DNA from: Pseudodesulfovibrio mercurii | GTDB lineage: Bacteria > Desulfobacterota > Desulfovibrionia > Desulfovibrionales > Desulfovibrionaceae | Direction: 5' to 3' | Assembly (NCBI RefSeq): GCF_000189295.2 | Contig: NC_016803.1 | Location: forward strand, 3,270,001-3,302,000 | DNA: 32,000 bases | Shown here: in pieces, positions 1 to 22,433 of the stretch | Layout of the letters: each line of letters begins with the position of its first letter | Numbering within the stretch: position 1 is the first letter of the stretch | Notes under the pieces: model-generated | What the model was told of the DNA's origin: nothing | What the model saw: the letters and a program-made list of their open reading frames with translations, nothing else | Database searches by the model: none | Translations under genes and position numbers: made by a program

Positions 1-535
1 CCAGGGTGGACTTGCCCGCGCCCGAGAATCCGGCCAGGGAGATGCCGCGTTCGCCCGAACGCACCCCGGCGGCGTGGCCCAGGAACCCGCCCCTGTTGAG
101 CTTCCACTCGATGAACCGGTTGTTGACGAAATTGATGACCTGGTTGGGGTTGTCCAGGCACGGCCCCACGGCCACGTTCTCGCCCCGGCCGAAGAGGAAG
201 TGCATGCCGGTCAGCCGCTTGCGGACCACGCGGCCGTCGGGCAGGTCGATCCACTCCTCCTTGATCCTGGTCTTGCCGGGATCGGGCTCCTTGACGTTGA
301 AGGCGAGGTCCGTGTCCACGGCCGGGACCTCGTGGGCCGAGAGGGTGATCTCCGGCTCGCCGTCCCCGGTCAGGAACTCCTTGAAATAGTCGGCCAGGAC
401 GTCGTGCAGGGCGTCCGTGGAGCTGTCCACCCGGATGCGGCAGCCGCCGAGGTCCAGGTGGAGGGTGTGCCCGGCCGGGCAGGCCGTCTTCACGGCCTCG
501 GCCAGTTCCCTGCGGGTGGTGCCGGTCAGCTTCAT
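1..535 (-). CDS. HprK-related P-loop kinase (GAK-system 'kinase B'-like), partial; C-terminus lies beyond the left edge
   Basis: Absent from the ORF track because there is no stop in the window. Manual minus-strand translation from ATG 535-533 gives MKLTGTTRRELAEAVKTACPAGHTLHLDLGGCRIRVDSS...NRGGFLGHAAGVRSGERGISLAGFSGAGKSTL. There is an HprK-style P-loop GFSGAGKST at the window edge. The ATG overlaps the stop of the upstream ATP-grasp gene (ATGA at 532-535). Confidence 0.6.
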   Translation of the reverse strand, partial: MKLTGTTRRELAEAVKTACPAGHTLHLDLGGCRIRVDSSTDALHDVLADYFKEFLTGDGEPEITLSAHEVPAVDTDLAFNVKEPDPGKTRIKEEWIDLPDGRVVRKRLTGMHFLFGRGENVAVGPCLDNPNQVINFVNNRFIEWKLNRGGFLGHAAGVRSGERGISLAGFSGAGKSTL

Positions 536-1404
536 TTGAGTTTCTCCATGACGTAGTCCACGTAGCGCGCGGCGGCGTCGATGCCGCTGGTCTCCTGGAT
601 GCCCCGGAAGCCCCCGAACACGGAGACCTCGAAGACGTAGGGGCCGTCGTCGGTGATGGCCACGTCCACGCAGGTGAAGTCGAGGTTGAAGTCGGCCTGG
701 GCCTTGCGGGCCAGCTCGATGATCTCGGGCGCGGGCTCGTAGGGCCGGTATTTGCCGCCCGAGGCCGTGGTCGTGTTCCAGGCCCCGTTGGTCTTGCACC
801 GGGCGTAGGTGGTCAGGTACTCGCCGCCCAGGAAGGCGATGCCCAGGTCCAGATCGCCCAGCTCGATGGTCTTCTGGATGTACAGGATCGGGTTCTCGGC
901 CTTGTACTCCTCGATGGCCGCCCGGGCGTCCGGGCCGTTCCTCAGCACGAACATGCCGCGCGCCTTGGAGGTGTACAGCGGCTTGAACACGGCCTCGCCG
1001 TATTGCTCCAGCGCCGTCAGGGCCTGGTCCACGGACTCCGTGACGGTCGTGGGCGGCATGGGGATGTCCTTGAGTTGCAGCGAGATGGTGCAGGACAGCC
1101 GGTCCAGGGCGCGCAGGATGGCGTAGGGCGCGCTGAATATCCTGAGCCCCCGCTCGTGCAGGTAGCGCAGGACCTCCAGCCGGTCCAGGAGGTCCGGGGA
1201 ATAGCGCGCGCCGATCTTCTTGATGATCAGGGCGTCGAAATCGTTCAGGGTGTGCCCGTCGTAGAAGGCCCGGCCCGAGGGTAGGTCCAGGCGCACGTCC
1301 TCCATGTCGATGAGCACGCGCTCCCCGCCGGTCTTCTCGGCCACGGTGTCCGCCAGTTTTTCGGAGGACCAGCCGCCCTCGATGCCAATGACTCCTATCT
1401 TCAC
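532..1404 (-). CDS. ATP-grasp enzyme (RimK-like; GAK-system ATP-grasp-like)
   Basis: 290 aa with RimK-like ATP-grasp architecture (EAVFKPLYTSKARGMFVL, ILYIQKTIE, FTCVDVAITDDGPYVFEVSVFGGFRG). GTG start at 1404 is preceded by AAGGAG. Confidence 0.85.
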   Translation of the reverse strand: MKIGVIGIEGGWSSEKLADTVAEKTGGERVLIDMEDVRLDLPSGRAFYDGHTLNDFDALIIKKIGARYSPDLLDRLEVLRYLHERGLRIFSAPYAILRALDRLSCTISLQLKDIPMPPTTVTESVDQALTALEQYGEAVFKPLYTSKARGMFVLRNGPDARAAIEEYKAENPILYIQKTIELGDLDLGIAFLGGEYLTTYARCKTNGAWNTTTASGGKYRPYEPAPEIIELARKAQADFNLDFTCVDVAITDDGPYVFEVSVFGGFRGIQETSGIDAAARYVDYVMEKLK

Positions 1405-1423
1405 GAAACGGCTCCTTGCTTGC

Positions 1424-3076
1424 CTAGTAGTAGAGGACGTCCTCGGGCAGGGAGAAAAGCTCCCAGTCCCCGCCCCGGTATTGATGAATCTTTTCCAGCA
1501 GGAACATGGACCGGTTGTACATCTCCTTGGCGAACTTGAAGTTCAGCTCGAACCGGGTGGAGGTGTAGAAGCTGCGCGCCAGGGCGAAGGCCAGCCGGGC
1601 CTGGACCGTGGGGTCCTCGTGCCGCTGGGCGAACTCCAGGATGAACCCGTAGAACTGCCGGATGACCGAGTTGATGCGTTTGCGGTGGTCCGAATCGAAC
1701 AGGGGCACGCGGAAGTTGGAGACCAGGAAGACCGAGGCGTCCTGGACGTAGTCGAAGTCCCGCGAGCGGTACAGGTCGATGTAGTGGATCTGCTGGGCCT
1801 CGTGGTTGTAGACCACGTTGTTGATGTTGAAGTCGCCGTGGATGAAGACCGAGAAGGGGGCTTCCAGCTCGTCCTCGATGTCCGCGCAGGCCGACAGCAG
1901 GGCCTCGGTGGACCGGACCTCCGACGGCCCCAGGCTCTTGGGGTCGCGCCAGAACTCGGGGTGGGTCTGGAGCACGCCTTCCAGGCGGGACTGGATCTGC
2001 CGGATGTAGTTGGTCTTGACCGGCAGCCGGACCATGGTGGTGGACCAGGTCTCGAGCACGGTGTTCTCCAGGATGAACAGGGCGTTGCGGACCAGCTCGT
2101 CGTCCCCGGACAGGATCACCTCGTCCAGGGTGCAGCCGTTCAGGAACTCCACCAGCATGGACCCCTTGTCCGCGTCCTCGTGGAAGCCGTAGATGTCGGC
2201 CACCAGGTGCGGGAAGAGCTGCTTCCAGCGCTGGATGGACTCCCGCTCCTTGCGGATCTTCTCCAGGTTTCCTTCCTTGTAGATGGACCCCTGCTTCTTC
2301 TCCTCGGCGGTCAGCTCGGCCTCGCGCGGCTCGACCTTGCCGATGCGGCAGCCCGAGCGCGTGCCCCAGATGGCGCTGAAGTCTATGTCCGAGAAGGAGT
2401 CGCTGAACCCGGACTTGGTCAGGGTCTGCTGCAACGCCTCGAACTGCTCGATCTTGATGCGCTCGCCGAGCAGGGAGAAGATGACCGCCTCGCCGATGTT
2501 CAGCAGGGCGTCGCCCACCCGTTCGAAATAGCGGAAGATGAACAGCACCGTGACCAGGGATTGCGCGTCGCGGCCCATGCCCATCTCGTTCATGACCCGG
2601 TCGAAGCGGACCTTGTACACGTCGTCGAGCATGGGCTCGGCCTTGCAGATGTACAGGGCCTTGGACATGTCCTCGTCGTGGTAGGCGTCGAGGATGGCCT
2701 CCAGCCGGGAGAGCATGATCTCGAAGACCTCGGTGTAGTCGTAGCGCTGCACGAAGGACTGGTCGTCGAGGTACTGCATCTGCTTGACGATGTTGACGAA
2801 ATAGTCGGCGATCTTTTCGAGGTTCACGCAGATGACCTGGATGGCCCTGATCTTGTTCAGGGCCCGCTTGTCCAGGGACCGATCCGCGTGGATGCGCGAG
2901 TAGCACTTGTTCTCGATGATCGTCTTGAGGTTGTCGATGTAGTCGTCGCGCGAGGTGATCTTGGCGTACCGCTTGCGGGAAGGGGCATCCATGAACCTCT
3001 GCGTGGACCGGGCCTGGTTCTCCACCTCGTAGACGATGAACTTGAAGTTCTCGTCCAGTCCTTCGAAGGTCATCAT
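1424..3076 (-). CDS. Fusion protein: two PhoU-like repeats (N-terminal ~215 aa) plus an aminoglycoside-phosphotransferase/choline-kinase-fold kinase
   Basis: 550 aa. PhoU-type signatures LEKIADYFVNIVKQ and FERVGDALLNIGEAV. APH-fold catalytic loop FIHGDFNINNVVY followed by IHYIDLYRS. The start overlaps the stop of the upstream small gene (TGATG at 3074-3078). Confidence 0.8.
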   Translation of the reverse strand: MMTFEGLDENFKFIVYEVENQARSTQRFMDAPSRKRYAKITSRDDYIDNLKTIIENKCYSRIHADRSLDKRALNKIRAIQVICVNLEKIADYFVNIVKQMQYLDDQSFVQRYDYTEVFEIMLSRLEAILDAYHDEDMSKALYICKAEPMLDDVYKVRFDRVMNEMGMGRDAQSLVTVLFIFRYFERVGDALLNIGEAVIFSLLGERIKIEQFEALQQTLTKSGFSDSFSDIDFSAIWGTRSGCRIGKVEPREAELTAEEKKQGSIYKEGNLEKIRKERESIQRWKQLFPHLVADIYGFHEDADKGSMLVEFLNGCTLDEVILSGDDELVRNALFILENTVLETWSTTMVRLPVKTNYIRQIQSRLEGVLQTHPEFWRDPKSLGPSEVRSTEALLSACADIEDELEAPFSVFIHGDFNINNVVYNHEAQQIHYIDLYRSRDFDYVQDASVFLVSNFRVPLFDSDHRKRINSVIRQFYGFILEFAQRHEDPTVQARLAFALARSFYTSTRFELNFKFAKEMYNRSMFLLEKIHQYRGGDWELFSLPEDVLYY

Positions 3077-3342
3077 CAGCGGACCTTGAGGAAGGCGTCT
3101 TCCGACGCCTGGATGGAGGGCGCGTCCTTCCAGGACACCTTGATGGAGATCTTGTTCTCGGTTCCCTTTTTCCTGGCCTTGACCGTGAAGTTGAGCAGTC
3201 CCTGGGGTTCGAGGTGAATCTCGTTGCCGTTGGTGGAGAGGTCGATGGAGTGCTTCTCGAACCCCTCGATCAGGGATTCCAGGAACTCCTTGATGGACCC
3301 GCAGTCCTGGAGCGAATCGAATACGAATTTTTCTTCTGCCAT
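3076..3342 (-). CDS. Small amphi-Trp-domain-like protein (88 aa)
   Basis: MAEEKFVFDSLQDCGSIKEFLESLIEGFEKH...NKISIKVSWKDAP. It shares an N-terminal pattern with the 4544-5068 protein (D.G.i..F...L....E ... ISxKxxxK). Translationally coupled to the kinase gene. Confidence 0.6.
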   Translation of the reverse strand: MAEEKFVFDSLQDCGSIKEFLESLIEGFEKHSIDLSTNGNEIHLEPQGLLNFTVKARKKGTENKISIKVSWKDAPSIQASEDAFLKVR

Positions 3343-3358
3343 GGGTGTCCTTGCCTGC

Positions 3359-4519
3359 CTATCCCGCCAGGCGGGCCTTGTACTCCTGAATGACCGTGCG
3401 TCGGGAGATGTTGTTGACGATGAGCCGCTTGCGCACGCCCAGGTCGTCCCAGGCGGGCTGGTAGCCGATCTCGCGGGCCGACTTCTCCGGGTCCTGCTGG
3501 TCCGCGGGCTTGGTCTTCTCGCCCATGTGGCAGTCGTCGCCCATGAAGATGAGCTTGTCCCTGCCGGAGGTGCGCCGCTCGTTCTGCTCGTTGACCACGG
3601 AGATCAGAAACTCCGTGTATTCCCTGGACTGGGGGTTCCAGACCTCGATGCCGTCCACGTCGTAGTTGCGCAGCAGGATGGGCCAGAACTGTTCCGGGTG
3701 GGGGATGACCACGCAGCCGCCCAGGGACCGGACCTCCTCGATGACCTCGCTGGCCCGGTAGAAGAACGACAGGTCGAACCCCTCCTTGACCAACTGCTTG
3801 ACCGCCTTGAGGTAGGCCTGGACGCGGTCCGTCACGTTGTCGCCGAGATCGGAACGCATGGCGTTGAACCAGTCGCGCAACAGCTTGTTCTTGACCGACA
3901 GGCGCGGCACGTCGGCCCAGTGTTCGTCCAGCAGTCGTTCGACCTTGGCCACGTTGACGCGGACGAACTCGATCAGCTCGCGGTCCGCGCCCGTGGCCCT
4001 GGCCGCGCGGGCCACGCGCGCCTCGTCGGGCCTGGTGATGGTGTGCATGAACTCGAACAGCTGGCCCGAGCGGTACTTGAAGGTGTGGGCCAGCATGGAC
4101 TTGAGCACGCCCGCGTCCTCCACCCGCTCGTCGGCGAAGTGCAGCAGGAGCTGGACCTTGCGGTTGAAGCCGGAGGAGAAGCAGTCCACCTCAACCCCGG
4201 AATAGCCGTCCCAGCTCATGAGCTGGTTGTGCTGGGTGGGGATGAGCAGTTCGTCCGTGCGGTTGGGGAACATGGCCTCCACCCTGGCGCGGATGTGCTC
4301 GAAGGGCACGAATTCCGGGTGCCAGTGCGCGGCCAGGACGACCTCCTGCCGGGCGTGCACCGTGGAGGGGGTGACCACCTGCTCCACCTGCCACGGTTCG
4401 AGGTCCGTGGAGACCACGGCGAAGAACCGTTCGACGTCGGCCTCGGAGATTTCCTCGTCGGTCTCAAACGGCAGGGTCCGGCAGTCGCGGTCCTTGGGGT
4501 CGGTCTGGATCAGTTTCAT
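3359..4519 (-). CDS. Hypothetical protein, tentatively a PHP-like metal-dependent phosphoesterase with a large insertion
   Basis: 386 aa. Motifs resemble the PHP fold: LAAHWHPEF (HxH), GGCVVIPHPEQF...DVDGIEVWNPQS, FMGDDCHMGE (D.H). No confident family call is possible without an HMM search. Confidence 0.5.
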   Translation of the reverse strand: MKLIQTDPKDRDCRTLPFETDEEISEADVERFFAVVSTDLEPWQVEQVVTPSTVHARQEVVLAAHWHPEFVPFEHIRARVEAMFPNRTDELLIPTQHNQLMSWDGYSGVEVDCFSSGFNRKVQLLLHFADERVEDAGVLKSMLAHTFKYRSGQLFEFMHTITRPDEARVARAARATGADRELIEFVRVNVAKVERLLDEHWADVPRLSVKNKLLRDWFNAMRSDLGDNVTDRVQAYLKAVKQLVKEGFDLSFFYRASEVIEEVRSLGGCVVIPHPEQFWPILLRNYDVDGIEVWNPQSREYTEFLISVVNEQNERRTSGRDKLIFMGDDCHMGEKTKPADQQDPEKSAREIGYQPAWDDLGVRKRLIVNNISRRTVIQEYKARLAG

Positions 4520-4543
4520 GGGCGTTGTCCGGGGTCGGGTGTT

Positions 4544-5068
4544 TCAATCGTACTTGGCGTGGCAGCGGCTCTTCTCGTGGACCAGTCCGTCCACGGCCGC
4601 GTGCATCCGCTCCAGGTCGCCGGACTCGTAGGCGGCCTTGAACTCCGCGCAGACCTGCGTGAAGCTCTCGTAATATTCGTCCCCGTAGCCGGGGTAGCCG
4701 ACCATCAGGGCCGCGTCGGCCAGGAAGGCGTCCACCGCCTCCCTGGGCGGTTCGACGCCGTCGTGGACCATCTTGACCAGAATCTTGAAGCTGCCGCGCA
4801 TGCGCTTCTTGAGGTCCTTGTACTTGGGCCTGGCGGGCTCGCCGTCCGCGCCGACGGCCTCCGGGGCGCACGGCTTGGCCGCCTTGAATTTGGCCTTGAG
4901 GCTGATCTGGCCGAACTCGTTCTTCACGCCGATCTTGATCTTGCGGAAGTCGTCCACGCAGGCGAATTCGTCGTGCCCGCCGTTCTCCACGGCGTCGGCC
5001 AGGGCGCGGAAAAAGGCGGCCAGTTCCCCGGCGTCGAGATATTTGCTGATGGTCATGTCGTCGCTCAT
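4544..5068 (-). CDS. Amphi-Trp-like N-terminal domain protein with a C-terminal 'XXXCH'-type motif
   Basis: Start chosen at ATG 5068 (MSDDMTISKYLDAGELAAFF...), preceded by AGGGAGA. The track ORF extends to 5104. C-terminus reads ...GLVHEKSRCHAKYD. The N-terminal ~60 aa are paralogous to the 3076-3342 protein. Confidence 0.6.
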   Translation of the reverse strand: MSDDMTISKYLDAGELAAFFRALADAVENGGHDEFACVDDFRKIKIGVKNEFGQISLKAKFKAAKPCAPEAVGADGEPARPKYKDLKKRMRGSFKILVKMVHDGVEPPREAVDAFLADAALMVGYPGYGDEYYESFTQVCAEFKAAYESGDLERMHAAVDGLVHEKSRCHAKYD

Positions 5069-5262
5069 GCAGGTCTCCCTATGAAAAATGATTGTGACGA
5101 CCATACCGGGAAAAAACGCTCCAAGACAATGCGCGGCGTGGAATTGTCACAATTGTTCACACAGCCCCGCGTTATCCGGTCCGCGCCCGCGCGGGGCGGC
5201 GGTCAATCATTTCCATTTCCCCGGAATGCTGCTATTCAGGCCACAATAGCCGGAGGTTACCC

Positions 5263-6990
5263 ATGCTGCGCCATCTCGCCCGTTTCGTCCTTGCCGCCGT
5301 CATCCTTGCCTATCCCGTTGCGGCCCGCGCCTTCGACGTGACCCTGCTGCACGTCAACGACTCCCACTCCTATCTGGACGCCACGGCCGACAAGATCGCC
5401 CCCAGGGGCGTGGCCACCTACGTGCGCATGGGCGGCTGGGCGCGCCTTGAGCGGGCGGTCGAGGACGCCCGCGCCGAAAAGGACAACGTCATCCTGCTGC
5501 ATGCGGGCGACGCGGTACAGGGCGGCCTCTATTTCATGAAGTACGGCGGCAGGCCCGAGATGGAACTGCTGGACCGGCTCGGCTTCGACGCCTTCGAGCT
5601 GGGCAACCACGAGTTCGACCGGGGCGCGCCCTTCCTGGCCGGGTTCCTCAAGTACACGCGGGTCCCGGTGCTCTGCGCCAACCTGCACGCCCCGGACGAG
5701 CCGGTCCTGGCCTCGCGGGTCAGGCCCTACGTCATCCTTGAGCGGGGCGGCCAGCGGATCGGCGTCATCGGCCTGCTCACCCCGGAGACCAAGGTCATCT
5801 CCAGCCCCGGCCATGTGGACTTCACCGACGAGACCCACGCGGCCACCCTGCTGGTGCGCGAACTTCAGGCGCGCGGCGTGAACAAGATCGTGCTTCTGAC
5901 CCACGTGGGCTTCGAGGAGGACAAGCGCCTGGCCGCGACCATCCCCGGCGTGGACGTCATCGTGGGCGGCCACTCCCACACCCTGCTCGGCAGCCCCGAC
6001 GGCGTGGGCGCGCTGGGCCTGCGCCCCGAGGCCGCCTATCCCACGGTGATCAAGGGCGCGGACGGCGACGACGTGTACGTGGTCACCGCCTGGAAATGGG
6101 GCCGCGTGCTCGGCCGCCTGGACCTGACCTTCGACGACCAGGGGCGCGTCACCCGCGCCGAACCCCGGCCCACCCTGATCCTGGCCGACACCTTCAAGCG
6201 CCGTAACGACGCCGGGCAGAAGATCGAACTCAAGGGACCAGAGCGCGAAGACCTGCTCGCCCTCATCAAAGCCGATCCCGAGGCCGCCGTGGTGGAGGCC
6301 GACCCGGCCGTCCGGACCTTCCTCGGTCCGTTCAGCCAGGGCGTGGAGGCCATGGGCACCGAGGTCATCGGCGAGGCAGTCCTGCCCCTGCCGCACATCC
6401 GCGTGCCCGGCACCACCGACACGGGCGAGTCCCTGCCGCGCGGCAGCCTCATCGCCCCCCTGGTCTGCCGGTCCATGCTCGCCCAGCTTCAGGATACCGG
6501 CGAACCCGCCGACCTGGCCCTGCTCAACGCGGGCGGGGTGCGCGAGTCCGTGGAGCAGGGGCCGGTGACCATGAGCACCGCCTACACCCTGCTGCCGTTC
6601 AACAACAGCCTGGTGCTCCTCGAACTGACCGGCGAACAGATCCGCCAGGCCCTGGAAACCGGCGTGGACCGGGGCGGGGGCGCCTTCCCCTACGTGGGCG
6701 ACGCCCGCTTCACCGCCGACATGCGCCGACCCGCCGGGAGCCGCGTCCTGGCCATCGACACCCTGGACCACGACGGCAACTGGACCCCGCTCAACCCGGC
6801 CCGCGTCTACCGCGTGGTCACCAACGCCTACCTCGCCTCGGGCGGCGACGGCTACGAGGTCCTCAAGGCGGCCAAGTCCAGCTACGACACCGGCTTCGTC
6901 GACGCCCAGGCCTTCATCCGCTACGTCCGGCAACAACGCATGCTCAAACCCCTGCCCACCACGGGCGTGACCTACATCCCCGCGAAGTAG
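5263..6990 (+). CDS. Secreted bifunctional metallophosphatase/5'-nucleotidase (UshA family)
   Basis: 575 aa. Signal peptide MLRHLARFVLAAVILAYPVAARA. Calcineurin-like motifs LLHVNDSHSYLD, HAGDAVQG, GNHEFD, THVG, GGHSH. C-terminal 5'-nucleotidase domain. GGAGG RBS. Confidence 0.9.
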   Translation: MLRHLARFVLAAVILAYPVAARAFDVTLLHVNDSHSYLDATADKIAPRGVATYVRMGGWARLERAVEDARAEKDNVILLHAGDAVQGGLYFMKYGGRPEMELLDRLGFDAFELGNHEFDRGAPFLAGFLKYTRVPVLCANLHAPDEPVLASRVRPYVILERGGQRIGVIGLLTPETKVISSPGHVDFTDETHAATLLVRELQARGVNKIVLLTHVGFEEDKRLAATIPGVDVIVGGHSHTLLGSPDGVGALGLRPEAAYPTVIKGADGDDVYVVTAWKWGRVLGRLDLTFDDQGRVTRAEPRPTLILADTFKRRNDAGQKIELKGPEREDLLALIKADPEAAVVEADPAVRTFLGPFSQGVEAMGTEVIGEAVLPLPHIRVPGTTDTGESLPRGSLIAPLVCRSMLAQLQDTGEPADLALLNAGGVRESVEQGPVTMSTAYTLLPFNNSLVLLELTGEQIRQALETGVDRGGGAFPYVGDARFTADMRRPAGSRVLAIDTLDHDGNWTPLNPARVYRVVTNAYLASGGDGYEVLKAAKSSYDTGFVDAQAFIRYVRQQRMLKPLPTTGVTYIPAK

Positions 6991-7386: not shown

Positions 7387-8376
7387 TCAGCAGTTTTCCC
7401 AGCGGTCGGCCTCGGCGCTTTTGAACAGGGCGTCCACGGTGTGTTGGTTGGCGAAGGTGTCCATGATGGAGATGGGGACGGACGTGTCTTCGAGCACGGC
7501 CCGGGCGAAGGCTTCGGCCTGGAGGGTGTACTGGTCGCAGGGGTCGAAGGTGATGGTGTGCGTTTCGCGGTCCTGCTGGAGCAGGATTTCGGTGGGGGCG
7601 TCGGGCGGGGCGTTGAACGGGATGATGATCTCGATGCGGCCCTTTTCGCCCAGAACGTTGACCCGCTGGTAGGGGGCCAGCTGGGTGGAGCAGGTGAAGG
7701 CGGACAGTCTGCCGCCGAAGTCGAGCAGGCCGGAGAAGGTCCGGTCCGTGCCGAACTCGGGGTCCCTGTCCATCCAGCCGAGCACGCGCCGGGGCTGGGC
7801 GTCGAACAGCAGGCGGGACAGGGAGACCTGGTAGCAGCCGATGTCCATGAGTCCGCCGCCGCCCATGTCCGCCTTGTTGCGGATGTTGCCGGGGTCGGCG
7901 TTGAAATAGGAGAAGAAGGACTGGATCGAGGTCGGCCTGCCGATGGCGCCCCGGTCGATGAGCCGCTTGGTTTCCACCCACTGGGGGTGGAAGCGGTACA
8001 TGAACGCCTCCATGACCTTGACCTCCGGGTGGACGGCCATGGCGTTGATCAGGCGGTTGACCTCGCCGTCGTTCAGGCCCAGGGGCTTTTCGCAGAGCAC
8101 GTGCTTGTTCCGGGCCATGGCCTTGAGGGTCCATTCCACGTGCAGGTGGTTGGGCAGGGGGTTGTAGACCGCGTCGATGCCCGGGTCGGCCAGCAGGGCC
8201 TCGTAGCTGCCGTAGGCCTTGGGGATGTTCAGGGCCTCGGCGGTCCGGCGGGCGGCCGATTCGTCGCGCGAGCAGATGGCCTCGACGGTGCAGTTGCGGG
8301 CCTTCTGCATGCCGGGAATGACCTTGGTGCGGCCGATCCTGGCCGTGGACAGCACGCCGATGCGGATGGTCTTCAT
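7387..8376 (-). CDS. Gfo/Idh/MocA family NAD(P)-dependent oxidoreductase
   Basis: Start chosen at the internal ATG 8376 (MKTIRIGVLSTARIGR..., Rossmann N-terminus) with a GGGGGAG RBS. LCEKPL motif present. The track ORF extends to 8493. Confidence 0.9.
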   Translation of the reverse strand: MKTIRIGVLSTARIGRTKVIPGMQKARNCTVEAICSRDESAARRTAEALNIPKAYGSYEALLADPGIDAVYNPLPNHLHVEWTLKAMARNKHVLCEKPLGLNDGEVNRLINAMAVHPEVKVMEAFMYRFHPQWVETKRLIDRGAIGRPTSIQSFFSYFNADPGNIRNKADMGGGGLMDIGCYQVSLSRLLFDAQPRRVLGWMDRDPEFGTDRTFSGLLDFGGRLSAFTCSTQLAPYQRVNVLGEKGRIEIIIPFNAPPDAPTEILLQQDRETHTITFDPCDQYTLQAEAFARAVLEDTSVPISIMDTFANQHTVDALFKSAEADRWENC

Positions 8377-8483
8377 GGGCTCCCCCAGGGTTGACGGTGA
8401 TTGCCGCCTCCCAGTATAACCGGAATCCGTCACCACGCAAGCGCGGATATCCCCGCGAACCAGCCAACAACATCGGAGAGAGC

Positions 8484-8798
8484 ATGACCGCATTCGCCAA
8501 CGCGACCATCAAGAAACAGGCAAACATCTATTTCGACGGCAAGGTAACCAGCCGGACCATCACCCTGAACGACGGCAGCGTCGTCACGCTCGGCATAATG
8601 CTGCCCGGCGAGTACGAGTTCGGCACCGAGAAGCCGGAGTTCATGGAGATCACCTCCGGCGAGCTGTCCGTGCAGCTGCCGGGCATCGACGACTGGGTGG
8701 CCGTGACCTCGGGCCAGAGCTTCAACGTTCCGGGCGAGGCCAAGTTCCGTCTCAAGGTCAGCACCGTGACCGACTACTGCTGTTCCTACCTGGACTAG
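8484..8798 (+). CDS. ppnP: Pyrimidine/purine nucleoside phosphorylase PpnP (DUF1255/YaiE family)
   Basis: 104 aa, MTAFANATIKKQANIYFDGKVTSRTI...GEYEFGTEKPEFMEITSGELSVQLPG...FNVPGEAKFRLKV...YCCSYLD. Collinear with E. coli YaiE/PpnP as I recall it. The track ORF starts earlier, at 8391. Confidence 0.85.
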   Translation: MTAFANATIKKQANIYFDGKVTSRTITLNDGSVVTLGIMLPGEYEFGTEKPEFMEITSGELSVQLPGIDDWVAVTSGQSFNVPGEAKFRLKVSTVTDYCCSYLD

Positions 8799-9217: not shown

Positions 9218-9368
9218 CCGGCCGCCTGAGCGTTGTCCCGGCCGGGCATGGACCGGCGGGACCGCTCGGGTGCCTCCCGGCAAAGCCTGCCGGTCCCCGC
9301 GTCCGGGGATCCTTTTCCGTGACACCCTGTTGACAAAACAGCCTTTCTGTGTTTTTTTGGTGCGTGTA

Positions 9369-9396
9369 CCGCAAACGTTTGCGGCAACGTTTGCGG
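9369..9396. promoter_or_regulatory. LacI-family-type operator: perfect 16-bp palindrome plus a duplicated half-site
   Basis: ccgcaaacgtttgcgg (9369-9384) is an exact palindrome with the AAnCGnTT core typical of LacI/GalR operators. It is immediately followed by caacgtttgcgg (9385-9396). It lies 73-100 bp upstream of the galT ATG, and a TTGACA hexamer sits at 9330-9335. Confidence 0.6.
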
Positions 9397-9468
9397 CACG
9401 ACCCGGAGGGCGCGGAAGTCTTGGGAAGGACCTCCCTCCGGCGCGATCACGAGAGCCGAGGGGAAGGC

Positions 9469-10527
9469 ATGTTTTTCGAGGACCATCCGCACAGGCGGCT
9501 GAACCGGCTCACCGGCGAATGGGTGCTGGTTTCGCCCCAGCGCACCAAGCGGCCCTGGCAGGGCCAGCAGGAACCGCCCGACCGGGCGGCCCTGCCGCCG
9601 TATGACGAGCACTGCTACCTCTGTCCCGGCAACGGCCGGGCGGGCGGGGCGGTCAATCCCGACTACACCGGCACCTTCGTCTTCACCAACGACTTCGCGG
9701 CCCTGCTGCCCGAGCCGCCCGCGCAGGGGCTCGCCCCGCAGACGGACGGGCTGCTGGTGGCCGAGCCCGAGACCGGCACCTGCCGGGTGATCTGCTATTC
9801 CCCGCGCCACGACCTGACCATGGCCCGGCTGGGCGTGGACCGGGCGGCAGCCGTGGTGGACGTGTGGTGCGAGGAGTTCCGGCAGCTCGGGGGGCGCGAG
9901 GACATCGGCTACGTCCAGATCTTCGAGAACCGTGGCGCGGCCATGGGCTGCTCCAACCCGCATCCCCACGGCCAGATCTGGGCCACCCGGTCCGTCCCCA
10001 TGTACCCGGCCGCCGAGGACCGCCACCAGGCCGCGCACCTGCGCGACCACGGCCAGTGCCTGCTCTGCGCCTACCTGGAGACCGAACTGGCGCGGGGCGA
10101 GCGGATCGTCTTCGAGAACGACTCGTTCGCGGCCCTGGTGCCGTTCTGGGCCCTGTGGCCCTTCGAGACCATGATCCTGCCCAAGGCGCACCTGACGAAC
10201 ATCCCGGCCATGAGCCCGGCCCAGCGGCGCGACCTGGCCGAGGCCATGGTCCGGCTGAACGTGCGCTACGACAATCTTTTCCGGACCTCGTTCCCCTATT
10301 CCATGGGCATCCACCAGGCCCCGACCGACGGCGGGGACCACCCGCACTGGCATTTCCACCTGCACTACTATCCGCCGCTCCTGCGCTCCCGGTCCGTGAA
10401 GAAGTTCATGGTCGGCTTTGAAATGATGGCCATGCCCCAGCGCGACCTGACCGCCGAGTCCGCGGCGGCCCGGCTGCGCGAACAGTCCGAGGTCCACTAC
10501 CTGGACCTGCCGGGCGAGGGCGCGTGA
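9469..10527 (+). CDS. galT: Galactose-1-phosphate uridylyltransferase
   Basis: MFFEDHPHRRLNRLTGEWVLVSPQRTKRPWQGQ..., CYLCPGN zinc motif, and catalytic HPHGQIWA (HxH). Start chosen at the internal ATG 9469. Confidence 0.9.
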   Translation: MFFEDHPHRRLNRLTGEWVLVSPQRTKRPWQGQQEPPDRAALPPYDEHCYLCPGNGRAGGAVNPDYTGTFVFTNDFAALLPEPPAQGLAPQTDGLLVAEPETGTCRVICYSPRHDLTMARLGVDRAAAVVDVWCEEFRQLGGREDIGYVQIFENRGAAMGCSNPHPHGQIWATRSVPMYPAAEDRHQAAHLRDHGQCLLCAYLETELARGERIVFENDSFAALVPFWALWPFETMILPKAHLTNIPAMSPAQRRDLAEAMVRLNVRYDNLFRTSFPYSMGIHQAPTDGGDHPHWHFHLHYYPPLLRSRSVKKFMVGFEMMAMPQRDLTAESAAARLREQSEVHYLDLPGEGA

Positions 10528-11837
10528 TGACGAGCGCGGCCGCATACGCCGAGGCCCTGCGTCGGGGCGACCTGGACGCTGTCCTGGCCGAGCTGTACCG
10601 GCCCGGCGACGTGGCGGCCCAGCGCGCCCGCTATCTCGATCTCCTGGCCCGTTTCGTGGACTGGCCCGGCCCCGGCCCGGCCGCCCTGGTCCTGTCCCCC
10701 GGCCGGACCGAGCTGGGCGGCAATCACACCGATCACAACCTGGGCGTGGTCCTGGCCGCCGCCGTGCAGTTCGACTGCCTGGCCGCGGCCCGGCCCAACG
10801 GCGGGGACGTGGTGCGCATCCGCTCCAAGGGGTTCGACGGCGAGATCGTCGTGGACCTGAACGACCTGGCGCCCCGGCCCGAGGAGGAGGACACCTCCGC
10901 GGCCCTGGTGCGCGGCGTGGCCGCCGGGCTGGCCGGGAACGGCCGCCGGGTGGCCGGGTTCGACGCCCGCGTGGACGGCGAGGTCCCCCTGGGCGCGGGG
11001 TTGAGCTCGTCGGCGGCCTTCGAGGTCCTGGTGGGGCGGATCTTCAGCGAACTGTTCAACGGGGGGGCATGCACCGCCCTGGAGCTGGCCGTGGCGGGCC
11101 GGGCGGCGGAGAACGTCTATTTCGGCAAGCCGTGCGGGCTCATGGACCAGCTCTCCTGCGCGGCCCAGGGCATCCTGTCCATCGACTTCGCGGACCCGGC
11201 CGCCCCGGCCGTGCGCGAGGTGGACTTCGATTTCGAGCGCACCGGGTACCGGCTGGCCGTGGTCGCCACGGGCGGCAGCCACGCGGACCTGACCCCGGAC
11301 TACGCGGCCATCCCGGACGAGATGGGCCGGGCGGCCCGTGCCCTGGGACGGGAGCACGCGCGCGGCCTGACCGTGGACGCGGTCCTGGCCCATGCCGCAC
11401 GGGTGCGTGAGGCGGCCGGGGACCGGGGGGTGCTCCGGCTGATCCATTTCATCGAGGAGACGGACCGCGCCGCCGAGCAGGCCGAGGTCCTGGCGGCCGG
11501 GCGCATGGACGATTTCCTCGACCTGGTCCGGCGGTCCGGGGACTCCTCCTGGCGGTTGTTGCAGAACTGCATCTCGGCCACCGCGCCCCTGGAGCAGCCC
11601 ATCCCCCTGGCCCTGACCCTGACCGAGCGGTTCCTGGGCGGCCGGGGCGCGTGCCGCATCCAGGGCGGCGGCTTCGCCGGGACCATCCAGGCCTACGTGC
11701 CCGAAGGGCTGTTCGCGGCCTACGCGGCGTTCATGGAGGGCATCTTCGGACCGGGGGCGGTCATGCCGCTCAAGGTCCGCAGGCCGGGCTTCGAACGCAT
11801 CTCCCTCGACGGGATCGGCGGGGAGGCGCGGGCATGA
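10527..11837 (+). CDS. galK: GHMP-family sugar kinase, galactokinase-like
   Basis: PGRTELGGNHTDHN (galactokinase signature region) and the GHMP motif PLGAGLSSSAAFEV. The start is ambiguous between GTG 10524 and ATG 10527; both overlap the galT stop. Confidence 0.8.
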   Translation: MTSAAAYAEALRRGDLDAVLAELYRPGDVAAQRARYLDLLARFVDWPGPGPAALVLSPGRTELGGNHTDHNLGVVLAAAVQFDCLAAARPNGGDVVRIRSKGFDGEIVVDLNDLAPRPEEEDTSAALVRGVAAGLAGNGRRVAGFDARVDGEVPLGAGLSSSAAFEVLVGRIFSELFNGGACTALELAVAGRAAENVYFGKPCGLMDQLSCAAQGILSIDFADPAAPAVREVDFDFERTGYRLAVVATGGSHADLTPDYAAIPDEMGRAARALGREHARGLTVDAVLAHAARVREAAGDRGVLRLIHFIEETDRAAEQAEVLAAGRMDDFLDLVRRSGDSSWRLLQNCISATAPLEQPIPLALTLTERFLGGRGACRIQGGGFAGTIQAYVPEGLFAAYAAFMEGIFGPGAVMPLKVRRPGFERISLDGIGGEARA

Positions 11838-12862
11838 GCCAGTTCACCATCAAGGACCTGGCCCGCAAGCTGGGCGTGTCGCCGTCCACGGTGTCCCGCG
11901 CCCTGCGCGGCCACCCGGACATCAGCCCGGCCACCCGGCAGCGCGTGACCGAGGCGGCCGAGAAGTACCAGTACCACCCGAACCAGCTCGCCCAGTCCCT
12001 GCAGAAGAAACGCTCCAACGTCATCGGGGTCATCGTGCCCGAGATCCGGCACCACTTCTTCTCCCACGTCATCGGCGGCATCGAGGAGGTCGCCTACGAC
12101 AACGGCTACACCATCATGGTCTGCCAATCCAACGAGACCCTGGCCCGCGAGATTCTCAACGTCCAGGCGCTGGTGGCCAACCGCGTGGCCGGGTTGCTCA
12201 TCGCCATCTCTTCGGAGACCACGACCTTCGAGCACCTGTCCAGGGCCATGCGCCAGCACGTGCCCCTGGTCCAGTTCGACCGGGTGGTGGAGGAGCTGGA
12301 CACCGGCAAGGTGGTGGTGGACGACTACGCGGCCGCCTTCGGCGCGGTGGAGCACCTGATCAAATCCGGCTACCGGCGCATCGGGCACATGGCCGGGCGG
12401 GAGGGCATCGCCCTGAACCGCCTGCGTTTCGAGGGGTACCGCGACGCCCTTGCGGCCCACGGCCTGCCGCTGGAAGAGAAATTTCACCTCAGCGGCGGGT
12501 ACCGCGAGGAGGACGGCCGGGCCGGGGCCGAGCGCTATCTGGCCCTGGGCGAGCTGCCCGAGGCCATCCTGGCCATCAACGACCCCGTGGCCGTGGGGCT
12601 GTACACCCGGTTCAAGGAGCTGGGCGTGCGCATCCCGGACGACGTGGCCCTGGTGGGTTTCTCCGACACCCCGGCGGCCGCGCTCATCGACCCGGCCCTG
12701 ACCACGGTCTACCAGCCCGCCGTGGACATGGGGCGGACCGCTGTCTCCCTGCTGCTGCGGCAGTTCGCCGAGGGCGCGGACTTCACGCCCGAGACCGTGG
12801 TTCTGAAGACCGAGCTCCGGGTGCGCGGCACCTCCGCGCCCAGGGGGGGCCTATGCAACTGA
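11834..12862 (+). CDS. LacI family transcriptional regulator
   Basis: MSQFTIKDLARKLGVSPSTVSRALRG HTH followed by a periplasmic-binding-protein-like sugar-binding core. ATGA overlap with the galK stop. The track ORF starts upstream at 11651. Confidence 0.9.
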   Translation: MSQFTIKDLARKLGVSPSTVSRALRGHPDISPATRQRVTEAAEKYQYHPNQLAQSLQKKRSNVIGVIVPEIRHHFFSHVIGGIEEVAYDNGYTIMVCQSNETLAREILNVQALVANRVAGLLIAISSETTTFEHLSRAMRQHVPLVQFDRVVEELDTGKVVVDDYAAAFGAVEHLIKSGYRRIGHMAGREGIALNRLRFEGYRDALAAHGLPLEEKFHLSGGYREEDGRAGAERYLALGELPEAILAINDPVAVGLYTRFKELGVRIPDDVALVGFSDTPAAALIDPALTTVYQPAVDMGRTAVSLLLRQFAEGADFTPETVVLKTELRVRGTSAPRGGLCN

Positions 12863-13905
12863 CCCGGCGACCCTTCGGCGCGATCGACGACGGCACCCCA
12901 GTGGAGCTGTTCACCCTGGCCAACGGAGCGGGCATGGAGGCGGACGTGTGCACCTACGGCTCCGCCCTGGTCCGGCTGACCGCGCCAGACCGCAACGGCA
13001 CACTGGCCGACGTGGTCCTGGGGTACGACGACCTGGGCGGCTACCTGCGGGACGAATGCTATTTCGGGCGGCTGGTGGGCCGGGTGGCCAACCGCATCGG
13101 CGGGGCGCGCCTGGTCCTGGACAGCGAGGAATTTCTTCTGGACCGCAACGACGGCCGCCATCACCTGCACGGCGGGCGGGGCGGGTTCCACAGCCGGGTC
13201 TGGCGCGCGGAGCCCGTCGAGACCGGGGGCGGGCCCGGACTGGTCCTGACCCTGGAGAGCCGCGACGGGGACCAGGGCTACCCCGGCAACCTGGCGGTCA
13301 CGGCCGTCTACACCATGACCGACGACGGGTTGCGCCTCGATTTTTCGGCGGCCACGGACCGGACCACGGCGGTCAACCTGACCGCGCACCCCTATTTCAA
13401 CCTGACCGGGCGGACGGGAACGGACTGCCTGGGCCACATCGTGACCATTCCGGCCCGGCGCTACCTGGCCACGGACCCGGAACTGATCCCCACCGGGAGC
13501 CTGGCCGAGGTGGCCGGCACGCCGATGGATTTCCGGGCCGGGGCGGCCGTGGGCGCGCGCATGGGCGAGGACTTTCCGCCCCTGTCCTTCGCCGGGGGCT
13601 ACGACCATTGTTACGTCCTCGATGGACAGGCCGGGCTGAAGCCCGCCGGGTCGGTGTTCGAGCCCGTATCGGGCCGGGGCCTGGAGGTCCTGGCCACCCA
13701 GCCGTGCGTCCAGTTCTATTCCGGCAATCACATCCCGGAAGGGTTGCCCGGCAAGGGCGGCGCGGTGTATGGTGAGAGGTCGGGACTGTGTCTCGAGCCC
13801 CAGGGATTCGTGGACGCACCGGGGCACGCGCCCTTCCCGCAGGTGACGCTGCGCCCCGGACAGGCATACAACCAGACGATTTTGTACAGGTTTTTCGTGA
13901 AGTAG
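12853..13905 (+). CDS. galM: Aldose 1-epimerase (galactose mutarotase)
   Basis: 350 aa, with typical GRVANRI, HLHGG, GYPG and NLTAHPYFNL motifs. Overlaps the regulator stop by 10 nt. Confidence 0.85.
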   Translation: MQLTRRPFGAIDDGTPVELFTLANGAGMEADVCTYGSALVRLTAPDRNGTLADVVLGYDDLGGYLRDECYFGRLVGRVANRIGGARLVLDSEEFLLDRNDGRHHLHGGRGGFHSRVWRAEPVETGGGPGLVLTLESRDGDQGYPGNLAVTAVYTMTDDGLRLDFSAATDRTTAVNLTAHPYFNLTGRTGTDCLGHIVTIPARRYLATDPELIPTGSLAEVAGTPMDFRAGAAVGARMGEDFPPLSFAGGYDHCYVLDGQAGLKPAGSVFEPVSGRGLEVLATQPCVQFYSGNHIPEGLPGKGGAVYGERSGLCLEPQGFVDAPGHAPFPQVTLRPGQAYNQTILYRFFVK

Positions 13906-13941
13906 CACAGGACTGTGCACAGGCAAAAAGAGACGGTCAAC

Positions 13942-15039
13942 ATGGCAAACGTGCAATTGAAGAAGGTGGTCAAACGGTTCGGCGACGTGGAGGTGGTTCA
14001 CGGCATCGACCTCGACATCCAAGACAACGAATTCATCGTCCTGGTCGGCCCGTCGGGCTGCGGCAAGTCCACGGTCCTGCGCATGATCGCGGGCCTGGAG
14101 CCGATTTCCGGCGGCGAGGTGTTCATCGGCGGCCGGATGGTCAACCAGGTCTCGCCCAAGGACCGCAACGTGGCCATGGTCTTCCAGAACTACGCCCTGT
14201 ACCCGCACATGTCCGTGCGCGAGAACATGGGCTTTTCGCTGAAGATGCGCGGCAAGGGCGTGGACGAGATCGCGGCCAAGGTGGACGAGGCCGCCAGGGT
14301 CCTGGAGCTGACCCCGTACCTGGAGCGCAAGCCGTCGGAGCTGTCCGGCGGGCAGCGCCAGCGCGTGGCCATGGGCCGGGCCATCGTCCGCCAGCCGGAC
14401 GTGTTCCTGTTCGACGAGCCCCTGTCCAACCTGGACGCCCAGCTGCGCACCCAGATGCGCATGGAGTTGAGGAAGATGCACCTGCGGCTGGCGACCACGA
14501 CCATCTACGTGACCCACGACCAGACCGAGGCCATGACCCTGGCCGACCGCATCGTCATCCTCAAGGACGGCCACATCCAGCAGGTGGGCACGCCCATCGA
14601 CGTGTTCGAGCGGCCCGCCAACGTCTTCGTGGCCCGGTTCATCGGCAACCCGCCCATGAACATCCTGGAGGGGACCTTCCGGGTGGAGGACGGCCGCCGC
14701 TACGTCCAGGCCGGTCCCTCGAAATTCCCGGTGTCGGACGGCCAGAGCGACTCCTTCAAGGACGGCGCGTCCGTGCTCGCGGGCATCCGCCCGGACTCCA
14801 TCAAGATGGGCGACGGCATCAAGAAGCTGCCCGAGGCATGGATGTGCCAGGGCGAGGTGGTCGTCTCGGAGATCCTCGGCGGCCACTCCCACCTGGAGAT
14901 CGTGGTGGACGGCGAACACCAGCTCATCGCCGAGGTCGAGGGCAGGGTGGTGGCCCATCCCGGCGAGATCGTGCCCATCGGCTTCGAGTTCGACCGCATG
15001 GTCCTGTTCGACCCGGAGACCAAAGAGGCGGTTTATTAA
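13942..15039 (+). CDS. Sugar ABC transporter ATP-binding protein (MalK/UgpC type)
   Basis: [14 protein letters not shown]..., Walker [10 protein letters not shown], signature LSGGQRQRV, Walker B FLFDEP, and a C-terminal TOBE-like regulatory domain. The track ORF starts at GTG 13915. Confidence 0.9.
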
Positions 15040-15118
15040 ATTTTTGGTTTAACAACAGATTGATTTGATTGACTCTTGATTGGCTGAAGTTGAGTTTGCA
15101 AACCTTTAGGAGGTACGT

Positions 15119-16375: not shown

Positions 16376-16384
16376 TTTGAGAAT

Positions 16385-20744: not shown

Positions 20745-20757
20745 GATGAAACCTCCC

Positions 20758-22375: not shown

Positions 22376-22433
22376 TCCCGTTCTCCTTGCATTCCAAAAT
22401 TGGTCCGGCGGAAGGCCGGGTACCCCGAAGGAA

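Follow-up and report, generated by a model that had tools for sequence, protein, structure and literature searches.

Gene content and conservation of the GAK operon

We analysed a stretch of 32,000 nucleotides (nt) of Pseudodesulfovibrio mercurii ND132 DNA (the window), which carries on its minus strand, between positions 1 and 5104, six tightly packed genes (DND132_2926–2931) of the GAK system, a conserved gene neighbourhood catalogued in TIGRFAMs/NCBIfam. From left to right, these genes encode HprK-related kinase B (HprK-B), the GAK ATP-grasp enzyme, a PhoU-PhoU::APH/EcKL kinase fusion (PhoU-kinase), an amphi-Trp protein, a protein of 386 amino acids (aa), and an XXXCH protein. An earlier reading of this DNA from its letters only (hereafter the sequence-only reading) had described six co-directional minus-strand genes; all six open reading frames (ORFs) were found where it had placed them, and both gene overlaps were read directly, an ATGA at 532–535 shared by the ATP-grasp stop and the HprK-B start, and a TGATG at 3074–3078 shared by the amphi-Trp stop and the PhoU-kinase start. 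The remaining junctions are short, as had been claimed (19 nt at 1405–1423, 16 nt at 3343–3358, and 24 nt at 4520–4543), and an AGGA-type ribosome-binding site is found at each of these three gaps; the overlapping and closely spaced junctions give the six genes the structure of an operon. The motifs quoted in that reading were also located (GFSGAGKST, 5–31; HGDFNINN, 1817–1840; RCHAKYD, 4547–4567). Some of its statements had to be revised. The XXXCH gene most likely starts not at position 5104, to which the mechanical ORF extends, but at an ATG at 5068, as indicated by a GGGAG ribosome-binding site, the 174-aa annotated product, and the starts of the orthologues. The cluster also does not end after six genes but continues past the left edge of the window, which cuts the leftmost gene (HprK-B) after 178 codons. 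Two long plus-strand ORFs (1304–3217, 637 aa; 3224–5341, 705 aa) were rejected as antisense artefacts of a 65% GC genome, with translations rich in Gly, Arg, Val, and Asp.

The NCBIfam models of the GAK system (curated cut-offs, in bits, in parentheses) are TIGR04354 amphi-Trp (31), TIGR04355 HprK-related kinase B (200), TIGR04356 GAK ATP-grasp (300), TIGR04357 GAK CofD-like (340), and TIGR04358 XXXCH (40). In a hidden Markov model (HMM) search, four proteins of the window scored above these cut-offs, which bears out the assignment to the GAK system that the sequence-only reading had made. The leftward extent of the operon was read from the D. caledoniensis locus (L001), whose ATP-grasp protein is 93% identical to that of the window. 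The CofD-like member, which had been suggested to lie further left, is found there directly after HprK-B (TIGR04357, 540 bits). In close relatives the operon continues with genes for the CofD/YvcK-like protein, a tail-bearing amphi-Trp protein (the tail basic and disordered), a ParA ATPase, and an amphi-Trp protein with a conserved N-terminal peptide of the kind found in ParA partners, and locus-tag numbering gives the same continuation in ND132 (contiguous DND132_2921–2931; DND132_2930 and the 386-aa protein have the same sequence, at 100% identity, the XXXCH protein is DND132_2931, and the 88-aa amphi-Trp protein is DND132_2929). From these contiguous tags we infer a CofD-like gene in ND132 itself. 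The window contains the promoter-proximal six genes of a conserved GAK operon of 10–11 genes from sulfate-reducing bacteria.

A genome scan with the ATP-grasp protein (17 loci), tblastn searches with all components, and six annotated contigs yielded a set of 23 loci. The neighbourhood is kept in these 23 loci, which represent at least five families and two phyla, so that the genes proved to be co-conserved, a point on which the sequence-only reading had made its interpretation depend. The conserved order (XXXCH, PHP-like, 88-aa amphi-Trp, PhoU-kinase, ATP-grasp, HprK-B, CofD-like, tail-bearing amphi-Trp, where PHP-like denotes the 386-aa protein) was seen in Desulfovibrionaceae, Desulfomicrobiaceae, Desulfobulbaceae, Desulfurivibrionaceae, and one Coatesbacteria metagenome-assembled genome (MAG), and the cluster was found in many Desulfovibrionales genera as well as in other Desulfobacterota families. 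Two variants were observed: in Desulfoluna the CofD gene has moved to the front of the cluster and XXXCH is absent, and L025 contains only five genes (PHP-like, amphi-Trp, PhoU-kinase, ATP-grasp, and HprK-B). Because both variants keep these five genes, we consider them the invariant core of the system. The CofD-like gene is present in 22 loci, the exceptions being L025, which lacks it, and L007, a 2.7-kb contig that ends inside HprK-B. The PHP-like and PhoU-kinase genes, neither of which belongs to the TIGRFAMs set, are as constant as those for ATP-grasp, HprK-B, and amphi-Trp; the PhoU-kinase gene is present in all 23 loci. Horizontal transfer of the six genes was rejected, as their GC content and third-codon-position GC content (GC3) are similar to those of neighbouring genes.

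Proteins encoded by the operon

The plain amphi-Trp protein (88 aa; 3076–3342, minus strand) matches TIGR04354 with E = 2.7e-18 (66 bits) and carries the motif F-x-[FYH]-[DE]-S-[LIV]-Q-D, invariant among the plain orthologues, as FVFDSLQD (minus strand, 3304–3327), with Trp71 at 3124–3138. Residues F6, S10, Q12, D13, and W71 are invariant in an alignment of 22 plain amphi-Trp orthologues, 12 of which also end in a C-terminal Ser. In every locus that covers the position, this gene lies between the PHP-like and PhoU-kinase genes, to the second of which it is translationally coupled. Two further amphi-Trp proteins are encoded downstream in the D. caledoniensis locus (65.9 and 60.5 bits on TIGR04354), and the amphi-Trp proteins of the GAK operon number three to four in all. 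They share one small domain and differ only in their appendage: none in the 88-aa protein, a long charged disordered tail ending in a basic patch, the XXXCH bundle, or a conserved N-terminal peptide with a disordered linker. In a profile search of 1.84 billion representatives (E ≤ 1e-3), the amphi-Trp family comprised 2,428 clusters (50% identity). The top 150 contain proteins of 73–223 aa with an N-terminal amphi-Trp domain followed by a variable tail (basic and K/A/P-rich, K/E-rich, or acidic) or sometimes by a second amphi-Trp domain, and no fusion to an enzyme was found among these 150. A search of the amphi-Trp profile against PDB returned no solved amphi-Trp structure; its matches (8bl6, 8bl3, de novo designed Ig-like beta-proteins) were discarded as a strand-pattern resemblance to the idealised beta2–beta5 meander rather than homology. 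Proteomics of Dissulfuribacter thermophilus has placed one amphi-Trp protein in the top 20 by abundance (PMC13490349). On three metagenome contigs (L018–L020), an acidic 91-aa amphi-Trp protein is encoded beside cytochrome oxidase subunit I and a universal stress protein, without GAK enzymes; such a stand-alone gene shows that the amphi-Trp domain functions outside the GAK system as well.

The XXXCH protein (174 aa; 4544–5068, minus strand) matches TIGR04358 with E = 1e-33; the ORF scores 115.5 bits and the 174-aa annotated form 115.8 bits. Its AlphaFold2 model (predicted local distance difference test, pLDDT, 82) comprises a beta-alpha-beta-beta N-terminal domain (residues 4–63), a disordered linker, and a four-helix bundle (83–173) whose invariant features are Met90 early in helix 1, a GYGDEYY loop, and Cys169-His170. 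The two small proteins of the window had been called paralogous; this holds in part, in that the amphi-Trp profile aligns (hhalign, P = 8.5e-5) over 27 columns with the beta-alpha element at the N-terminus of the XXXCH protein, where the Trp is missing. In another lineage, protein P0331 consists of a complete amphi-Trp domain, with Trp, fused to XXXCH, with both models above their cut-offs. The profile match of the N-terminal domain and the P0331 fusion together indicate that the XXXCH protein is an amphi-Trp protein with a bundle as appendage.

The XXXCH bundle resembles class II cytochromes (c' and b562): cytochromes c' make up 28 of the top 30 Foldseek matches of the model, followed lower down by b562 variants and a Kuenenia c'-like pair, with marginal statistics (E = 5e-3 to 0.1; template modelling, TM, scores normalised to the target 0.47–0.65). 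A weak hhalign alignment to Escherichia coli cytochrome b562 (P = 0.055) places His170 on the haem ligand His102 (RCHAKYD vs. AYHKKYR), and the invariant Met90 matches the position of b562 Met7; a Pfam Cytochrom_C_2 match to the last helix is sub-threshold (E = 0.14). The XXXCH family profile gave only noise against PDB sequences (HPt, ScoC, and Tim9 proteins, each matched outside the relevant region), and a sub-threshold Pfam match to DUF1965 was ignored. Neither a CXXCH motif nor an export signal was found in the protein, which has a single Cys (K-S-R-C-H) and an N-terminus (MSDDMTISKYLD) without a signal peptide; periplasmic haem-attachment machinery could therefore not act on it. On both counts, it falls outside the conventional c-type cytochromes. 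The modelled fold is suggestive of a cytoplasmic haem-binding bundle, and a bundle that binds a metal through Met, Cys, and His is equally possible.

A ParA-type ATPase with a deviant Walker A motif (KGGVGKT) is encoded beside the cluster in nine of the 23 loci; it matches ParA_partition with E = 9e-35, below the cut-off. In eight Desulfovibrionaceae loci the ParA gene follows the gene for the tail-bearing amphi-Trp protein and is itself followed by an overlapping partner gene, whose product consists of a conserved N-terminal peptide (M-S-x-D-[KT]-R-[LM]-G-[AV]-[ND]-P-L-x-W-[VM]), a disordered linker, and an amphi-Trp domain. DND132_2921 of ND132 carries this partner peptide and begins MSDERLGTNPLEWV. 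Known ParA/MinD partners contact the ATPase through a charged disordered N-terminal peptide and bind the cargo with the remainder of the protein, and ParA genes usually lie beside the genes of their cargo (PMC10241942). By analogy, the architecture of the amphi-Trp protein encoded after ParA fits that of a ParA partner. In L014 (Desulfobulbaceae), a ParA gene and two amphi-Trp genes are located upstream of XXXCH, with no peptide-bearing partner, and the linkage of ParA with the GAK cluster thus survives this rearrangement. The same Desulfobulbaceae MAG contains a 103-aa ORF (L014, 3730–4041) that abuts the first amphi-Trp gene of the ParA subcluster and resembles, by eye, a ribbon-helix-helix protein of the ParG/CopG type.

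Turning to the enzymes, HprK-B (1–535, minus strand; DND132_2926 by tag order) is represented in the window by the N-terminal 178 of about 365 codons, and this 178-residue fragment suffices for a match to TIGR04355 with E = 7.7e-73 and 245.6 bits, in agreement with the P-loop HprK-like kinase that had been recognised here; its full-length D. caledoniensis orthologue reaches 552 bits. The Walker A motif and the following catalytic Asp (GFSGAGKSTLALHLMSRGTTFISNDRV) align with Lactobacillus casei HprK/P (1jb1/2qmh; GxSGxGKS...DRV). Scores against the HPr kinase/phosphorylase models lie below the cut-offs (TIGR00679, 24.1 bits vs. 240; Pfam Hpr_kinase_C, 25.8 vs. 33.3). The HprK-B orthologue of L024 (6207–7313) has a weak precomputed Pfam match to PF27840 ScmC, which a local Pfam search with the D. 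caledoniensis orthologue did not reproduce. We take ScmC to be an HprK-like member of a radical-SAM/PqqD peptide-modification cassette; a literature search on the name returned unrelated acronyms only.

The GAK ATP-grasp enzyme (290 aa; 532–1404, minus strand; GTG start) overlaps with its stop the start of HprK-B and matches TIGR04356 over positions 1–287 of 287 (E = 1e-135, 451.3 bits) and Pfam RimK (51.6 bits vs. 21; E = 1e-13), consistent with its earlier description as RimK-like. It scores below the cut-offs of all characterised subfamilies (MptN, 148.9 vs. 350; rimK_fam, 104.2 vs. 143.4; LysX, 81.2 vs. 275.6; RimK, 63 vs. 331; CofF, 17.7 vs. 300), and the nearest characterised HMM is that of the tetrahydromethanopterin:alpha-L-glutamate ligase MptN (E = 1.6e-43). 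Its relatives in PDB are RimK and LysX/ArgX, enzymes that ligate onto protein C-termini (those of S6 and LysW, respectively).

The PhoU-kinase (550 aa; 1424–3076, minus strand) joins two PhoU repeats to a eukaryotic-like kinase of the APH/EcKL type with HGDFNINN as its catalytic loop, followed downstream by the metal-binding Asp in YIDLYRS (1763–1783). The proposed fusion of PhoU repeats with an APH-fold kinase was reproduced by Pfam (PhoU in two stretches, E = 1.6e-16; EcKL, E = 7e-6; APH, E = 6.5e-4). Matches of the whole protein in PDB are to PhoU only, and the kinase half taken alone is distantly similar to APH(3') (E = 1e-3). The PhoU equivalog model TIGR02135 gives 81.3 bits, below its cut-off of 130.25; the two Pfam PhoU repeats pass theirs (60.9 vs. 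23.5).

The 386-aa protein (3359–4519, minus strand) is a predicted PHP-fold phosphoesterase-like protein with a helical insert at about residues 137–265. Its earlier description as PHP-like found no counterpart in sequence HMMs and was borne out by the predicted fold and the order of the motifs. Searches of Pfam, NCBIfam, and PDB sequences with the single sequence and with a 40-sequence profile returned no match, even at E ≤ 10. The AlphaFold2 model (pLDDT 87.9; predicted TM score, pTM, 0.84) has as its only significant Foldseek matches Vibrio cholerae RNase AM (9etk, E = 5e-5), the PHP phosphoesterase BAD_1165 (3e0f, 3o0f), and 2yb1, a Chromobacterium amidohydrolase-superfamily protein solved with bound Mn, AMP, and phosphate, all with a probability of 1.00; TM scores are only 0.34–0.50, partly because of the insert of about 130 residues. 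Matches to CorA and CdnE were discarded (TM about 0.1). The PHP-like motifs are, on the minus strand, HWHPE (4313–4327), PTQHN (4226–4240), IPHPE (3692–3706), GIEVWN (3635–3652), and GDDCH (3527–3541). Residues H65, H67, H97, E110, H127, H274, E292, D329, and H331 are invariant in 40 orthologues, and in the model the motif residues are positioned at the ends of strands, in the sequence in which PHP enzymes carry their metal ligands; they can be mapped to putative individual metal sites by analogy with PHP motifs. The model thus supports assignment to PHP at the level of fold and motifs, not of sequence-family membership. A word-indexed search identified 1,559 homologues of this protein. Together with the CofD-like protein, which lies outside the window and is related to YvcK (E = 2.9e-35), HprK-B, the PhoU-kinase, the RimK-type enzyme, and the PHP-fold protein give the GAK system five enzymes with intact catalytic motifs.

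Upstream region and flanking genes

The intergenic region between the operon and a divergent 5'-nucleotidase gene (5069–5262) presumably contains the promoter and regulatory region. We identified here, about 80 nt upstream of the XXXCH start, a direct repeat TGTGAA-CAAT-TGTGAC (5146–5161, minus strand; consensus TGTKAM-N4-TGTKAC), which is the one match in the 32-kb window, against 0.01 expected. The repeat recurs once at the equivalent upstream position in six related loci (L001–L004, L006, and L016) and nowhere else in 26 loci; it is probably an operator bound by a regulator. No sigma-70 consensus promoter was found upstream of the operon, and terminator-like matches were at chance level; in the window, a search for Rfam families (riboswitch, leader RNA) returned none, apart from one chance-level sRNA match.

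The 5'-nucleotidase (UshA-like, Metallophos and 5_nucleotid_C domains; 5263–6990, plus strand) is transcribed divergently from the operon; because it adjoins the cluster only in the two closest relatives, we do not consider it a GAK member. Beyond it lie genes encoding a GFO/IDH/MocA oxidoreductase (7387–8493, minus strand) and the nucleoside phosphorylase PpnP (8391–8798, plus strand), followed on the plus strand by a complete galactose (Leloir) set consisting of galT (9349–10527), galK (10524–11837), a LacI-type regulator (11651–12862), and an aldose 1-epimerase (12853–13905), and by a MalK-type sugar ABC transporter comprising an ATPase (13915–15039), a binding protein (15119–16375), and permeases (16385–18397). 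A sugar-uptake locus of this kind (9349–18397) appears unusual for a sulfate reducer. The right part of the window is occupied by a Tad/Flp pilus cluster on both strands (20277–31683), which includes genes encoding TadE (20277–20744, minus strand), a TadG-like VWA protein (20758–22083, minus strand), a prepilin peptidase (24756–25361), RcpC/CpaB (25374–26195), a secretin (26207–27637), and the ATPases CpaE-like of the ParA family (28055–29290) and CpaF (29287–30705); a sigma-54 response regulator gene (22641–24026) is located within this region.

Possible functions and comparison with known systems

What is demonstrated for the GAK system is a parts list and its conservation, and we infer every enzymatic step given below by analogy. 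The sequence-only reading had suggested a protein or peptide modification pathway with the amphi-Trp proteins as substrates or carriers; this is compatible with our results and remains the leading idea. In a more specific form, we tentatively propose, as a possibility that we rate below even, that the amphi-Trp proteins form an abundant, ParA-positioned scaffold that is phosphorylated, glutamylated, and dephosphorylated by the enzymes of the operon. The amphi-Trp domains would co-assemble into an abundant cytoplasmic structure, to which the basic tail would contribute binding to polyanions or the nucleoid, the haem-type bundle a redox, gas, or metal input, and ParA positioning on the nucleoid. 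The target of HprK-B would be a Ser of the plain amphi-Trp protein (candidates being the invariant Ser10 or the frequent C-terminal Ser), to which the kinase may add several phosphates, as its lasso homologues do; the CofD-like protein may elaborate this phosphate, the ATP-grasp enzyme may add glutamate to a carboxylate of the same protein, the PHP esterase may remove the mark, and the PhoU-kinase may couple the modification state to phosphate supply. If true, the scaffold proposal would add a new class of ParA cargo and show HprK-type and RimK-type enzymes in a bacterial role not seen before.

Several points weigh against the scaffold proposal. The enzymatic roles are all assigned by analogy, with modification, complex, and localisation being predictions only, and oligomerisation of the amphi-Trp domain is an assumption. 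The plain amphi-Trp protein of ND132 ends in KVR, without the C-terminal Ser. The relatives of CofD and APH/EcKL mostly act on small molecules, nucleotides or RNA are the substrates of the proteins closest in fold to the PHP-like protein, and the best characterised HMM for the ATP-grasp enzyme is that of a small-molecule ligase (MptN, 149 bits, vs. 63 for E. coli RimK). ParA is not adjacent in more than half of the 23 loci, the minimal cluster of L025 does without XXXCH and CofD, and the abundant Dissulfuribacter amphi-Trp protein may be encoded outside a GAK cluster. An extended form of the scaffold proposal, which we regard as unlikely, would make the GAK operon the determinant of a new protein-based body of anaerobic Desulfobacterota, that is, a ParA-spaced amphi-Trp polymer whose tails would bind nucleic acid or a polyphosphorylated compound and which would carry a code of (poly)phosphorylation and glutamylation under the control of PhoU and the haem-type sensor XXXCH; if true, this would be an organelle or condensate of a new kind, governed by a post-translational code specific to it.

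The affinity of several GAK enzymes to small-molecule enzymes suggests instead, as the main alternative, a pathway in which the five enzymes would make or tailor a phosphorylated and glutamylated metabolite or cofactor-like compound, either free or carried by the plain amphi-Trp protein as by LysW, with the other amphi-Trp proteins as accessories in storage, scaffolding, or regulation. We consider this conceivable, if rather improbable. The similarity of the ATP-grasp enzyme to MptN, together with a weak match to CofF, agrees with such a pathway, as do the CofD family (a phospho-transferase or UDP-sugar-binding fold), the APH/EcKL kinases (which typically phosphorylate small-molecule hydroxyls), the presence among the fold neighbours of the PHP-like protein of 2yb1 with its Mn, AMP, and phosphate, and the resemblance of the ligase/small protein/kinase trio to LysX/LysW/LysZ. 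However, no enzyme for a carbon skeleton, CofC-type nucleotidyl-transferase, reductase, aminotransferase, or exporter is found in the operon in the annotated loci, and the amphi-Trp protein lacks the zinc finger and EDWGE tail of LysW; three to four amphi-Trp paralogues and a ParA partner would also be left unexplained. No characterised HprK relative is known to us that acts on anything other than a protein or peptide, and the lasso-cluster kinases indeed modify a peptide precursor (PMC9266682). If the small-molecule pathway were true, it would point to an unknown phosphorylated and glutamylated metabolite.

Alternatively, the amphi-Trp proteins may coat or organise a phosphate-rich cytoplasmic storage granule, consisting of a highly phosphorylated compound or oligophosphate, that the kinases would build, the PHP esterase mobilise, PhoU sense, and ParA space. 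Desulfovibrio gigas forms electron-dense granules of glucose pentakis(diphosphate). The fusion of PhoU to a kinase in an operon with two kinases and a phosphoesterase, the chains of up to four phosphates that HprK relatives build on Ser (PMC9266682), basic K/A/P-rich tails with a terminal basic patch that would suit polyanion binding, and a ParA module that fits the positioning of cargo are all consistent with such a granule. These arguments are nonetheless purely circumstantial, and a literature search on the D. gigas granules found no link to the GAK system; not all lineages have basic amphi-Trp tails (acidic and mixed ones occur), only the two closest relatives share the flanking 5'-nucleotidase, and neither the glutamate-ligase homologue nor the haem-type bundle would be explained. 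We regard a storage granule as quite unlikely.

A phospho-switch of the HPr type also appears quite unlikely. HprK-B would here phosphorylate the Ser of the plain amphi-Trp protein upon a metabolite or inorganic phosphate signal, as with HPr/Crh and in parallel to the Bacillus yvcJ-yvcK-crh arrangement, other proteins would be controlled by the modified form, and the remaining genes would act as inputs or outputs. The conserved P-loop and catalytic Asp of HprK, the relatedness of the CofD-like protein to YvcK, the invariant Ser in a conserved motif of an 88-aa protein, and PhoU as a known regulatory domain speak for it. The order of elements in the amphi-Trp fold (beta-alpha-beta4-5), however, differs from that of HPr, the window contains no components of a phosphotransferase system (PTS) nearby, and the ligase, the tailed amphi-Trp paralogues, and the very high abundance in Dissulfuribacter would be unaccounted for. 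Finally, an anti-phage defence system or a cluster for a ribosomally synthesised and post-translationally modified peptide (RiPP), suggested by the combination of kinases, ATP-grasp enzymes, and small proteins in such clusters, by the HprK-like kinases of lasso clusters, and by a weak match of the ATP-grasp enzyme to a RiPP maturase model (E = 6e-6), is highly improbable given that none of the six window proteins matches a PADLOC defence model, that the six genes resemble the adjacent ones in GC and GC3, that no mobile-element gene occurs among the Pfam-annotated flanking genes, that the cluster is spread widely over Desulfovibrionales genera and other Desulfobacterota families, that it lacks a protease, leader-peptide machinery, and an exporter, and that its small proteins are folded domains of 88–190 aa, with one family member among the most abundant proteins of its cell.

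The scaffold proposal and its alternatives concern a system that is widespread though function-less in the catalogue (1,559 PHP-like homologues and 2,428 amphi-Trp clusters) and whose expression is probably high in sulfate reducers of environmental importance, among them ND132, a genetically tractable model strain for mercury methylation. It offers testable handles, namely the five-gene core, an 88-aa candidate substrate with an invariant Ser, a candidate eraser (PHP), and a candidate haem or metal sensor; the ParA/partner pair predicts a structure that would be visible and positioned.

Among known systems, HprK/P can be aligned with HprK-B only over a 36-residue P-loop core (residues 162–199), and the N-terminal 150 residues of HprK-B are unrelated to it. 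HprK-B shares with the HprK-like kinases of lasso clusters (PadeK, ThcoK, SyanK, and PsmK) that a small protein is encoded alongside. The lasso-cluster kinases phosphorylate or polyphosphorylate the C-terminal Ser of the precursor, building up to four phosphates on one Ser, and the phosphate so attached is then decorated by another enzyme (PMC9266682). Whereas lasso clusters have B and C enzymes, the GAK cluster has neither of these, nor a PTS. PhoU proper is a stand-alone protein of about 235 aa encoded beside pstSCAB; here it is fused to a kinase, and no pst genes are present in the window. The PHP phosphoesterases of the TrpH/YciV (RNase AM) type share with the 386-aa protein the fold and the ordered residues HxH, H, E, H, HP, E..N, and DxH; it differs from them in carrying the helical insert and has no detectable sequence similarity to them.

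The GAK ATP-grasp enzyme has full-length homology with the enzymes of the RimK/S6, LysX/LysW, MptN, and CofF systems. An ATP-grasp enzyme, a small protein, and a kinase constitute the LysX/LysW/LysZ carrier logic, and in the LysW pathway, as in GAK, a small protein and a kinase are encoded beside the ligase; the reductase and aminotransferase genes of that pathway are absent from GAK. The acidic C-terminus of S6 and LysW has no counterpart in the 88-aa amphi-Trp protein. The features of an amino-group carrier are likewise missing, in that the amphi-Trp protein lacks EDWGE, the kinases are of the HprK and APH types, and no LysY/J/K-type genes occur in the annotated loci. Positioning systems of the McdA/McdB type, which serves carboxysomes, resemble the GAK loci in that a ParA and a small partner are encoded beside the presumed cargo genes; unlike in known ParA partners, the cargo domain of the GAK partner is amphi-Trp, which belongs to no known partner family, and the module is found in nine of the 23 loci.

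The closest comparison is with the GAK catalogue of NCBIfam, of which the ND132 locus is a canonical member; the UniRef name of the ND132 XXXCH protein already says GAK system. As UniRef and NCBIfam already catalogue the locus in this way, the object itself is known. A full-text literature search with the GAK system, the family accessions, and the ND132 locus tags found no functional work, and no characterised homologue or pathway emerged, consistent with the earlier statement that the cluster has no assigned function. The catalogue consists of HMMs that define a neighbourhood, assigns it no function, and omits the PHP-like protein, the PhoU-kinase, and the ParA/partner module. New in this study are the extent of the operon, the five-gene core, the predicted PHP fold, the modular nature of the amphi-Trp proteins, the ParA/partner module, the cytochrome-like fold predicted for XXXCH, the candidate acceptor Ser, and the conserved putative operator.

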